From positions 1-4,506 of the IMG/VR virus record IMGVR_UViG_2585427793_000002: a stretch of 4,506 nt of DNA; one strand, 5' to 3'. Within the stretch, counting starts at the first letter, position 1; each line of letters begins with the position of its first letter. The notes below the pieces were generated by a model. That model did no database searches, was not told where the DNA came from, and was given only the letters and a program-made list of their open reading frames with translations. The stretch comes from a virus. Its lineage: Duplodnaviria; Heunggongvirae; Uroviricota; Caudoviricetes. Positions 1,725 through 4,421 of this stretch are shown piece after piece. Position numbers and translations under genes: made by a program.

Positions 1725-2120
1725 TTACTCACGAATCAGGCGAGCACTCTTACTATTCATTTCAATACGCGAATACTGCGGTTTACCATCAATGATGTCT
1801 GTCATTACGAACACCTCACCCGGCTGCAGTTCAACTGCACCTTCCGGTAATTTCATACCGGCAAATACCGGACAACCCGGATGACGATCATCTTCTGTTG
1901 CTTCCAGCATTGACTCACCAAACCACTCCGTCGTGGCGCGACCATCAGCTGCTTTGTAGTGGATCAAGTACTGGTTTTCGCCATCCGCATACTGCGCGCG
2001 GGCTTTAACCTCACCCCATTCATCACTGATACGCATCTCCACCAGTTGAGACAACTCAAACTTAAACGGAGCAGCATCAGCACCAATTACAATCGGTTTG
2101 TTTTCTGTTTTTTCCATCAT
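1725..2120 (-). CDS. Hypothetical acidic protein (131 aa), function unknown
   Basis: ORF-track ORF 1725..2168 trimmed to the tandem ATG ATG at 2120..2115 (MMEKTENKPIVIG...), which is preceded by AGGAGA (rc of 2124..2129). The upstream ATG at 2168 has no Shine-Dalgarno. By my count 24 Asp+Glu versus 15 Lys+Arg; no TM segment, no signal peptide, no motif I recognise. Confidence 0.7.
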   Translation of the reverse strand: MMEKTENKPIVIGADAAPFKFELSQLVEMRISDEWGEVKARAQYADGENQYLIHYKAADGRATTEWFGESMLEATEDDRHPGCPVFAGMKLPEGAVELQPGEVFVMTDIIDGKPQYSRIEMNSKSARLIRE

Positions 2121-2291
2121 CGTCTCCTGATATCGAAGCCCGTCGCCGCACCGGGCACTGATCAACATTTGAGTATTCGCGGCGACAGAAAGAATTTATT
2201 TTATTGAGTAGCCACAAACACAGAATTTCATGCTTACCGGACGCTGGCGCATCCTTCATTTTTCAGCAAAATATTCTGCTCTTACAGGCGA

Positions 2292-2474
2292 TCAGTTCTG
2301 CAGACACTGCCGAACACCGTCGACAATTTCACAGACCTGAGACGCGGTATCGAAAAGCTGGCGCGCCTTATCCAGGCTGACGCACCCCACCAATAAAAAA
2401 GGCACCAGTATCGCTACCAGTGCCCGTTTCACCGCCGTTCGCGGCATTCTGTGTGTCCAGTGTTTTCGCGCCAT
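2292..2474 (-). CDS. Putative small lipoprotein (60-aa precursor, ~30-aa mature)
   Basis: N-terminus MARKHWTHRMPRTAVKRALVAILVPFLLVG|C has a basic n-region, hydrophobic core and lipobox L-V-G-C (Cys31). The mature part CVSLDKARQLFDTASQVCEIVDGVRQCLQN has three Cys. The ATG at 2474 is 1 nt after the stop of the upstream 37-codon ORF and preceded by GGTGGTGAT. Confidence 0.55.
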   Translation of the reverse strand: MARKHWTHRMPRTAVKRALVAILVPFLLVGCVSLDKARQLFDTASQVCEIVDGVRQCLQN

Positions 2475-2475
2475 A

Positions 2476-2589
2476 TCACCACCAACGCACAGCCCAAATC
2501 AGAACAGCGACCGCCACAAGGCGAATTGCAAAGGCCGCAGCCCTTGTCAAATCAAGGCTCGCGGGAGTTTCCATTTCAATACCTTTCAT
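2476..2589 (-). CDS. Putative 37-aa membrane mini-protein (MKGIEMETPASLDLTRAAAFAIRLVAVAVLIWAVRWW)
   Basis: Found by hand translation; below the ORF-track size cut-off. ATG at 2589..2587 with GAGG 9 nt upstream; C-terminal hydrophobic helix; TGA stop at 2478..2476 sits 1 nt before the lipoprotein ATG, suggesting translational coupling. The short length makes it uncertain. Confidence 0.3.
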   Translation of the reverse strand: MKGIEMETPASLDLTRAAAFAIRLVAVAVLIWAVRWW

Positions 2590-2721: not shown

Positions 2722-3099
2722 TTATCGCTTCAGCTGAAAGTGAGGTCCGTCTTTCAGCGTTTTCCAGTCCCCGCCCCATTCGATAGCGATCCCCAGCTCT
2801 GCGGCAGCCTGCTTAAATGCCTGTGCGATTTTCTCGTACAGAGGCCACTCCCATGACACCTGACTGCCAATGTAGGCCACAACATCCACCGCATCACCGG
2901 TCAGGTGGCGGCTGTTCATGGTCTGGCTTTTCCCTTCCGCAACCAGCTGTTTCTGGCGATACTTACTGCGCAGGCCTTCCGTAATACCGAAATCAACCTC
3001 CGTCAGCTCCAGCGCACGGCGAACTACAGCAACCAGCTGTGGTTTGACACCCTCCAGATTTTTTTCACTGCGACGGCTGAATCTGAATTTACCCGGCAT
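2722..3099 (-). CDS. Endolysin, L-alanyl-D-glutamate endopeptidase (peptidase M15 family, phage T5 Lys-like)
   Basis: 125 aa from the ATG at 3099 (GAGGTG 5 nt upstream; the ORF-track start at 3105 is a GTG two codons earlier). It carries a Zn-ligand pattern typical of M15 peptidases, SRHLTGDAVD ... WGGDW ... DGPHF, and overall resembles the small T5-type endolysin as I recall it. No signal peptide or SAR domain, consistent with holin-dependent release. It is the last gene of the cassette before the terminator. Confidence 0.85.
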   Translation of the reverse strand: MPGKFRFSRRSEKNLEGVKPQLVAVVRRALELTEVDFGITEGLRSKYRQKQLVAEGKSQTMNSRHLTGDAVDVVAYIGSQVSWEWPLYEKIAQAFKQAAAELGIAIEWGGDWKTLKDGPHFQLKR

Positions 3100-3101
3100 A
3101 T

Positions 3102-3377
3102 TCACCTCAACAATGGAAAGATTTTTGTGACGTTCCCGCGTGCGCGTATCACCAGCACGCAGAACAGCAGATTAAAAAACACTTCCAGCCAGCCCGTTGC
3201 TAACGGGCGACCACACAGATAGCTGAGGGGCGCAAAGGCATACAGCAGCATCAGCAGCCAGGCCAGCCATGACACCAGCGGTTTATGTCTGGAATCACGG
3301 CGACGATAAAAAAAGAGCGTCAGCACGATAACCGTGCATAACGCCACATTCAGCAATCCGGGAAGGTTACTTAACAT
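3102..3377 (-). CDS. Small 3-TM membrane protein of the lysis cassette (putative holin or antiholin), 91 aa
   Basis: ORF-track ORF 3102..3431 trimmed to the internal ATG at 3377..3375 (MLSNLPGLLNVALCTVIVLTLFFY...), which has a strong GGAGGAGG box 5-8 nt upstream; the track start at 3431 would overlap the upstream gene by 65 nt. Three hydrophobic helices and a basic C-terminus (RARGNVTKIFPLLR). Its TGA stop (3104..3102) abuts the endolysin start. Confidence 0.6.
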   Translation of the reverse strand: MLSNLPGLLNVALCTVIVLTLFFYRRRDSRHKPLVSWLAWLLMLLYAFAPLSYLCGRPLATGWLEVFFNLLFCVLVIRARGNVTKIFPLLR

Positions 3378-3759
3378 TGCCGCCTCCTCCACCCCGCAGG
3401 CGGGAGAACACACCGGACACCAGCGATGCAATATCCTGCTGGTGGATGAACGAGAGAATCTTCACCGACACCACCGAGACCAGCACCGCGCAAAGCGCAT
3501 CTGCTGATGTACCGTCATACCCTGTTTTTGATGCAATCCAGGCTGACAGCACACGCGCTCCCAGCACGCCGACAATAAACGACACCAGAAAATGTGCCAC
3601 CACGCGCCAGACTGAAAGTGACTGTGGCATCGTTGCCACAAATAACGCCCCGGCGAACGCGCCAAACACAATCCCGAAATCCATTCCGGTAAACAGCCCG
3701 AATACCGTCGCGCCACCCAGCGCCGCAGCCGTGCCGGAACCGGATAAGGGTTCAGACAT
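3367..3759 (-). CDS. Gly/Ala-rich 4-TM membrane protein, putative holin (130 aa)
   Basis: ATG at 3759 preceded by AGGAGG (rc of 3764..3769). About four hydrophobic helices (TAAALGGATVFGLFTG, FGIVFGAFAGALFVA, VVAHFLVSFIVGVLGARVL, ALCAVLVSVVSVKILSFI) and a Gly-rich charged tail. It is the first gene of a cassette ending in an endolysin, and its 3' end overlaps the next gene by 11 nt. Holin role is inferred from context, not homology. Confidence 0.65.
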   Translation of the reverse strand: MSEPLSGSGTAAALGGATVFGLFTGMDFGIVFGAFAGALFVATMPQSLSVWRVVAHFLVSFIVGVLGARVLSAWIASKTGYDGTSADALCAVLVSVVSVKILSFIHQQDIASLVSGVFSRLRGGGGGNVK

Positions 3760-3846: not shown

Positions 3847-3999
3847 TTATTCAGATTTACGCAGTAAAGGCCGGAGCACGACCAGCGCCATCACCACCAG
3901 CACACCATCTGCCAGCACCGACATCAGTCGTCCGGTGAAATCAACCACCACTACCAGAAACAACAGGATGACAGCCAGCACAAGGCGCGCACTTTTCAC
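3847..3999 (-). CDS. Putative 50-aa two-helix membrane protein (GTG start), translationally coupled to the TerB-like gene
   Basis: Found by hand translation; below the ORF-track size cut-off: (M)KSARLVLAVILLFLVVVVDFTGRLMSVLADGVLVVMALVVLRPLLRKSE. The GTG at 3999..3997 overlaps the upstream TGA stop (GTGA), with GGAG 8 nt upstream. Two hydrophobic helices and a charged C-terminus. No ATG start with a comparable ribosome-binding site. Confidence 0.35.
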   Translation of the reverse strand: MKSARLVLAVILLFLVVVVDFTGRLMSVLADGVLVVMALVVLRPLLRKSE

Positions 4000-4421
4000 A
4001 GGTACTGCTCCAGCGGCAACTGCAGCGCCTGCGCAATTTTCTTCAGTTGCGCTTCTTCTTCCTGAGCGATACCGTCCTGGTCAGCGATATCCAGACACAG
4101 GCACAGCACATTAACTGCATCATCAGTACCGGCAACATCAGCCAGCTGACGAAGAGCTTCGGCATTGGCAGAACGCGGCGACGCTTCATAACGGGCGCGG
4201 ATATTTGCACTCATTTGTGCAATCTCACCGGAGAACGGCGCAAAGGCAGGAAGTGCTGCAATGGTTTTTTCCAGTACCGCGATTTCTTTCGCGTCACAGG
4301 TGCCGTCAGCGTATGCAATGGAGTACGCGCCCCAGACGGTCGCCTCCACTGCGTCACGGTTCTCCATCTTCTTCACTTCGGTAATGGCCTTGCGGGTTTT
4401 CTTTTTGAAAATACCAAACAT
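3996..4421 (-). CDS. TerB-like (tellurite-resistance TerB family) helical protein, 141 aa
   Basis: ATG at 4421 with AAGGA about 9 nt upstream. The N-terminus MFGIFKKK and two 'hydrophobic-x-DG-x(3-5)-acidic' repeats (AYADGTCDAKEIAVLEK and ADQDGIAQEEEAQLKKIAQALQL) follow the pattern I recall for TerB (compare SDGNFDDDEKSAVREIARSLGF in plasmid TerB). Assignment is by pattern recognition only. Confidence 0.7.
   Translation of the reverse strand: MFGIFKKKTRKAITEVKKMENRDAVEATVWGAYSIAYADGTCDAKEIAVLEKTIAALPAFAPFSGEIAQMSANIRARYEASPRSANAEALRQLADVAGTDDAVNVLCLCLDIADQDGIAQEEEAQLKKIAQALQLPLEQYL

Follow-up and report, generated by a model that had tools for sequence, protein, structure and literature searches.

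YccV-like domains recur as modulators of AAA+ proteases, the characterised cases being HspQ, which acts on Lon and on ClpS, PDIP38, which acts on ClpX, and ClpF, which acts on ClpS1 (PMC7647994, PMC6719616). HspQ is at once a substrate and an activator of Lon, whereas its K96-acetylated form evades Lon and is an inhibitor of ClpS (PMC6719616). Its Lon degron consists of the C-terminal 20 residues (PMC11986505). It has been proposed that the HspQ trimer docks on the N-domains of Lon, possibly in a region that overlaps the one bound by PinA of bacteriophage T4, the protein from which phage targeting of Lon is already known (PMC8835725).

The gene that we compare with these systems, referred to below as the target, belongs to a lambdoid prophage and lies in a window of 4,506 nt (the whole stretch of DNA that was analysed) in which all genes are on the minus strand. 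The features of the window are ordered as follows:

4421..3996, minus strand: TerB-like gene (tellurite-resistance family, 141 aa)
3999..3847, minus strand: DUF3927/TciB-like gene (50 aa)
3759..3367, minus strand: holin gene, Phage_holin_8 (130 aa)
3431..3102, minus strand: holin gene, Phage_holin_3_7 (109 aa)
3105..2722, minus strand: M15 endolysin gene
2589..2476, minus strand: 37-aa ORF with a C-terminal TM segment, phrog_4493
2474..2292, minus strand: 60-aa ORF with the lipobox LLVGC, phrog_7528, its start lying 354 nt before the target start
2123-2128, minus strand: Shine-Dalgarno sequence AGGAGA, read directly from the sequence
2120..1725, minus strand: target CDS, a member of PHROG 1935/8618 and a relative of phiP27 L33
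1681..1721, minus strand: stem-loop with a 17-bp stem, beginning 3 nt beyond the target stop codon
1317..1328, minus strand: putative cosN 12-mer GGGCGGAAGGCG, in a lambda-type cos region between the target and Nu1, 396 nt beyond the target stop codon
1139..594, minus strand: Nu1, followed by the start of terminase A

The whole window was matched at 98.5% by a prophage in strain E200139, and the target gene is 100% identical to a copy in ETEC H10407. Residues 1-96 of the target are 99% identical to L33 of phiP27 (NP_543085), and both genes follow the same lysis cassette. However, L33 is a short form that ends in ..GAVVTE* and has an HNH gene before cos, whereas the window carries a 131-aa long form directly before a lambda-type cos and Nu1. 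A similar position between the lysis genes and cos is occupied in lambdoid prophages by YbcV/YdfO (DUF1398) and by lambda Bor, but Bor has a signal peptide and lipobox, neither of which is found in the target, and YbcV/YdfO show no homology to it. Indeed, models from Pfam, NCBIfam and PADLOC (defence proteins only) gave no match to the target, Pfam even at E<=10, and the DUF1398 assignment that the earlier note had considered for this gene falls away for that reason.

The target ORF encodes 131 aa from its first ATG and ends at a TAA stop codon (1725-1727). It had been described as a strongly acidic protein with 24 D+E against 15 K+R; the counts are correct, but the adverb is not, as the protein (net charge -9, pI 4.75, GRAVY -0.51) is only mildly acidic and similar in this respect to its neighbours in the same window, Nu1 (pI 4.97) and the TerB-like protein (pI 4.81). 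Its description as soluble agrees with the hydropathy scan, in which the highest 19-residue Kyte-Doolittle mean was 0.9 and thus too low for a TM segment, and a search for a signal peptide, a lipobox or another membrane or periplasmic targeting signal found none. The ribosome-binding site of its own that the earlier note had assigned to the gene is present, although it fits the second ATG better than the first: the AGGAG is separated by 3 nt from the first ATG (2118-2120) and by 6 nt from the second (2115-2117). Since the identical gene of ETEC H10407 is also annotated in RefSeq as 130 aa, translation probably starts at the second ATG and yields a protein of that length.

The target has the same orientation as the holin and endolysin genes and as Nu1/A, and is therefore most probably transcribed as part of the late operon. 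A consensus scan of the minus strand between 1140 and 2800 detected no sigma-70-like promoter, which is weak evidence either way. The 171-nt spacer that precedes the target contains an element, read by eye at 2130-2175 (minus strand), in which GTCGCCGC and GCGGCGAC form an inverted repeat around a loop of about 28 nt. Its end and the Shine-Dalgarno sequence are about 12 nt apart, and it could affect translation or the processing of the transcript.

Among 80 related viral loci we distinguished 48 alleles, and dN/dS was estimated over the 44 distinct alleles from E. coli prophages. With a value of 0.09 for codons 17-95, the core of the target is under strong purifying selection; this is a genuine gene with a constrained core, and a junk ORF is ruled out. 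The segments of the gene differ as follows:

2073..2120, minus strand: variable N-terminal tail, codons 1-16 (dN/dS 0.77, pLDDT about 63-78)
1836..2072, minus strand: conserved core, codons 17-95, comprising the barrel (about residues 17-75) and then an HPGCPVFA..LPEGAV tail
1728..1835, minus strand: C-terminal extension, codons 96-131, found only in the 'long' E. coli forms (dN/dS 0.43 over its last 33 codons)
1732..1831, minus strand: in-frame block of about 100 nt, present in the long form and missing from the short one, with identity to phiP27 resuming on both sides

Residues 96-131 derive from this in-frame block, which is absent in most relatives. The short form, of 99 aa and ending in ..LPEGAVVTE*, was found at half of the loci (40/80), the other alleles being the 131/132-aa long form, 116-aa truncations and a few frameshifted copies. 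Only short relatives (83-98 aa) were seen in Salmonella, Yersinia, Enterobacter, Klebsiella and Edwardsiella, and this, together with the relaxed constraint on the extension, indicates that the latter is a weakly constrained addition specific to E. coli. Judged from these sequence comparisons, the C-terminal 36 residues of the window allele appear to be a dispensable add-on. In phage cdtI the slot of the target is filled by orf60 (L003:268-630, 121 codons, 'start codon not identified'), behind which the phage keeps the last ~47 nt of the target core (equivalent to window 1834-1880) and the 3′ hairpin, which shows that a module was replaced inside the target gene.

The target belongs to a large, unnamed phage protein family. 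It matched phrog_1935 over residues 2-116 (E 2.5e-69) and phrog_8618 over residues 19-75 (E 5.7e-25), and both PHROGs were matched by all 62 distant relatives that we scanned. A profile search at E<=1e-3 recovered 656 clusters at 50% identity, the hosts of the family being temperate phages of Proteobacteria, and in the source records all of the 300-plus relatives are named 'hypothetical protein'. Among the relatives scanned, no Pfam model fell on the family core. The distant relatives are reduced to the domain by itself, about 58-65 aa long, whose consensus reads FKF.L.Q.V.I..SGE.G.V.GRAEY....N.YL..YKAADGRA...WW.E..L. A few polypeptides, among them P0043 (L013:232-903), P0112, P0153 and P0160, contain the barrel twice in tandem, and P0043 lies upstream of a lambda-type GpA terminase. 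Fusion partners in the longer relatives were uninformative, being limited to PHROGs that carry no functional annotation and to one Lcl_C domain.

The gene was found in 261 of 5426 complete E. coli genomes (about 5%), and most lambda-like phages do not have it. In E. coli the distance from the start of the 60-aa lipoprotein ORF to the gene is always 354 nt, whatever comes next, and what comes next is a Nu1 module of one of three types (about 83%, 51% or 45% identity) or the unrelated HNH and TerS genes of phiP27, so that at least four different terminase modules adjoin it. Because the register on the lysis side is fixed while the downstream modules vary, we conclude that the target travels with the end of the lysis module and not with cos. 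In Salmonella it follows an Rz-like gene and precedes an HK97-type terminase, whereas in Enterobacter P2-like prophages it overlaps at its start by a single base with the preceding DUF2514 gene, by our reading a P2 LysB-type spanin, and a P2 R-like gene comes next. In P2/HP1-like phages of Yersinia and Citrobacter and in the E. coli phage ESSI2 it lies between the small terminase gene and gpL, in Burkholderia phages and prophages it is found among early small genes, and in phiBt-TXDOH a family gene is located near HNH and TerS. Its patchy presence at module junctions, beside at least four terminase types in E. coli and at three further sites in the other phage groups, identifies it as a mobile accessory gene, mostly of late operons. 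The earlier note had called it cargo, i.e. accessory and not core, and both its frequency in E. coli and its varied neighbours bear this out.

The same note had placed the gene last before cos, which is correct for the window. The alignment with lambda (J02459) begins at lambda base 13, which corresponds to window 1316, and the record of phage cdtI ends at window 1329; a 12-nt cohesive end is thus expected at 1317-1328. The lambda cohesive end, which we take to be GGGCGGCGACCT, stands where the window reads GGGCGGAAGGCG. The cosB-side flank is about 95% lambda-like, and megablast matches to Stx1a-converting and other phages cross the 12-mer as far as window 1331 at about 95% identity. RefSeq annotates no gene between the target and Nu1, and we found no credible coding sequence there. 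A 61-aa ORF at 1380-1565 was considered as a gene before cos and rejected, since it has neither a PHROG match nor a RefSeq annotation and aligns to the unannotated right end of cdtI. What does not hold is that the cos-proximal slot is the tie of the gene, as its linkage is to the lysis module, and in phiP27 the HNH gene intervenes between the target homologue and cos.

The hairpin that follows the target is strongly folded (dG -29 kcal/mol for an 81-nt stretch, z -4.6). It is about 86% conserved after the short-form gene of phiP27, and occurs in phage cdtI behind a leftover 3′ gene fragment (..GAVVTE*). We discarded it as an intrinsic terminator because there is no U-run after it on either strand. 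It may represent a recombination boundary or an RNA 3′-end element.

The comparison with HspQ comes from the fold and from profile alignments. An AlphaFold2 model built with 46 sequences reached a pLDDT above 90 for residues 21-80, and its core is an SH3-like beta-barrel of about 60 residues that superimposes better on HspQ than on other barrels. The model and structural search that the earlier note had proposed have thus given a compact barrel with HspQ as its nearest neighbour. In BFVD, Foldseek recovered nothing but small barrels of uncharacterised proteins, and none had an E as low as 1e-3. The extension was predicted as four short strands with lower confidence, and four of the five AlphaFold2 models were poor, so the model of this part is not to be trusted. 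When the family profile was aligned by hhalign with that of the HspQ family, we obtained a probability of 78%, which sits under the usual 90-95% comfort level, with P 1.9e-5 and a score of 31.0 over 68 columns, against an HspQ profile that is shallow (Neff 1.9). With HspQ alone, P was 4.9e-4. The real score exceeds those of 200 column shuffles (10.3 +/- 2.4, maximum 25.1) and of the reversed alignment (8.9), and other SH3-like barrels (NusG KOW, L24, R67 DHFR and PsaE, used as controls) reached only 6.5-12.4 over 4-15 columns. In unfiltered hmmsearch, the family and HspQ matched each other with 12-20 bits in both directions.

The full-length profile alignment keeps a single register, in which F-K-F..Q.V of the family falls on KFGIGQQV of HspQ (PF08755; PDB 5YCQ; a Lon specificity-enhancing factor and ClpS inhibitor) and which ends near the HP motif. 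The alignments cover HspQ residues 4-87 and stop at 84-87, and the short forms end in ..LPEGAVVTE. The two proteins are similar in size and acidity (pI 4.53 for HspQ against 4.75), and the family core domains have a median pI of 4.7, with 68% below 5 and 6% basic. The residues S32, E34, G36 and W66 are invariant in the family alignments. The two also differ: a 16-residue insert of HspQ (about residues 29-44 by alignment) is missing from the target, and the C-terminal Lon degron of about 20 residues and the acetylatable K96 have no counterpart in it (PMC11986505, PMC6719616), while some phage alleles add the C-terminal beta extension. HspQ is also a chromosomal housekeeping and heat-shock gene, whereas the target is phage-borne and patchy. 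PDIP38/PolDIP2 and plant ClpF likewise use YccV-like domains to dock on ClpX or ClpS1, but these eukaryotic proteins have several domains, among them a second one that binds substrates, and carry large insertions, in contrast to the bare barrel of the target.

By the curated sequence criterion the target is not a YccV-like (PF08755) member: this Pfam model gave no match to the target at E<=10, none to the 62 relatives at E<=0.01 and none to 10 family members at E<=10. Searching PDB sequences with the family profile under default filters returned nothing, and single-sequence matches to BH3703 (E 0.75) and a retron HNH (E 1.4) were insignificant and were set aside as chance. Taking the model and the profile alignments together, we conclude that the core is HspQ/YccV-like in fold, and we consider it reasonably likely to be a distant homologue of HspQ.

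By analogy with the characterised YccV-like proteins, we tentatively suggest that the target might be a late-expressed binder or modulator of host AAA+ proteolysis, a function that we regard as possible rather than probable. The barrel would be a protein-binding module that docks on a host AAA+ protease or on its adaptor, and docking would change which proteins are degraded late in infection. The target would then act as a stable, degron-less competitor or inhibitor, comparable to the acetylated form of HspQ in its action on ClpS, or to T4 PinA in its action on Lon; this is more probable than a substrate-like activator because the target does not have the C-terminal 20-residue Lon degron of HspQ. 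PinA, which is also small and phage-encoded, binds Lon, perhaps in the region used by HspQ (PMC8835725); it belongs to a virulent phage, unlike the target, and is a precedent by function only. The contexts of the gene that we examined showed no link to proteolysis, and literature searches with the family accessions, the PHROG ids and HspQ combined with prophage returned nothing relevant and no experiment on any member. A more general form of the proposal, that PHROG 1935/8618 are widespread degron-less phage mimics of HspQ that dock on the N-domain of Lon or the adaptor sites of ClpS/ClpX, and in lytic growth inhibit or retarget AAA+ proteolysis, is more doubtful still.

Other functions have to be weighed against this one. 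The earlier note had raised an anti-defence role, in which an acidic protein imitates DNA and blocks a restriction enzyme or another DNA-binding defence enzyme. A small soluble protein with a net charge of -9, from a family whose core domains are mostly acidic and whose gene is a patchy accessory of temperate phages, would suit such a role, but neighbouring cytoplasmic proteins have a pI just as low, some of the family core domains are basic, and the extreme negative charge density of a DNA-like surface of the Ocr or ArdA type is absent. The modest acidity and the compact barrel closest to HspQ, in place of an extended charged surface, tell against the mimic, and no mimic-like structural matches appeared. 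A protein needed at DNA entry would moreover be expected to be expressed earlier than from the end of a late operon with no promoter detected, and we consider DNA mimicry quite improbable. It is rather unlikely, too, that the barrel binds nucleic acids itself, in the manner of the hemimethylated-DNA binding first reported for YccV or of a KOW/Tudor/PWWP domain, with a late role on phage DNA or RNA in replication, methylation state or packaging. The net charge is negative across the family, and the alignments contain no conserved basic patch, their invariant residues being those listed above. On the other hand, one family member matches the Pfam Tudor-knot (E 1.3e-4), KOW, Tudor and PWWP domains are neighbours of the fold, and sources name HspQ 'hemimethylated DNA-binding protein'. 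Upstream of the gene, at a distance of a few kb, several of these prophages have a phage DNA methyltransferase gene, but it is not adjacent and is missing from P2-like contexts.

The neighbours of the gene suggest two further roles. That it lies directly after the last lysis gene in the E. coli lambdoids (with the 354-nt register), in Salmonella and in Enterobacter P2-like prophages would be expected of a lysis-cassette accessory, e.g. a regulator in the cytoplasm that times the action of holin, endolysin or spanin. However, the copies between small terminase and gpL in other P2/HP1-like phages are far from lysis, those of Burkholderia sit in early small-gene clusters, the gene co-occurs with unrelated types of endolysin and holin, and the target has no membrane or periplasmic targeting signal; a lysis role is in our view quite unlikely. 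A DNA-packaging or head-completion helper working with terminase is very unlikely. The small terminase gene is often a neighbour, as the target precedes cos and Nu1 in the window, precedes HNH and TerS in phiP27 and Salmonella, comes immediately after TerS (P2 M-type) in P2-like phages, and is near HNH/TerS in phiBt-TXDOH. But a 95-100% identical gene is found beside Nu1 of the 83%, ~51% and ~45% types and beside the unrelated HNH/TerS of P27, and since the same gene adjoins such diverse and unrelated terminases, it is not the partner of any single packaging machine. Lambda itself and most other lambda-like phages also do without it (there was no lambda record among 15 tblastn hits).

Lon and ClpS-ClpAP control lambda N, Xis, SulA, antitoxins and many defence-related regulators. 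If the relation to HspQ and the proposed mode of action on proteolysis are true, a nameless family gains a testable function in the manipulation of Lon or ClpS-ClpAP, and it would offer a natural minimal YccV-like domain for studying how the barrel docks on AAA+ proteases. If a class of HspQ mimics exists, it would represent a general phage strategy that is so far known from isolated cases such as T4 PinA. Should the HspQ reading fail, the target is a conserved hypothetical accessory gene like many others. In both cases there is no further need for the DUF1398 assignment, and the idea of a DNA mimic finds no support here.

The lysis cassette upstream of the target shows some peculiarities of its own. 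The TerB-like and DUF3927/TciB-like genes (3847-4421) lie directly upstream of it, at the place where phiP27 has stx2e, and the annotation of ETEC H10407 lists an incomplete pseudogene at the position of the TerB-like gene. The two tandem holin-family genes (3102-3759, minus strand) are of differing type, overlap by 65 nt, and may form a holin/antiholin or two-component arrangement as in phiP27. The M15 endolysin gene is not followed by a classical Rz/Rz1 pair but by the 37-aa and 60-aa ORFs (2292-2589, minus strand), which, with a TM segment in one and a lipobox in the other, may constitute a minimal spanin-like pair.
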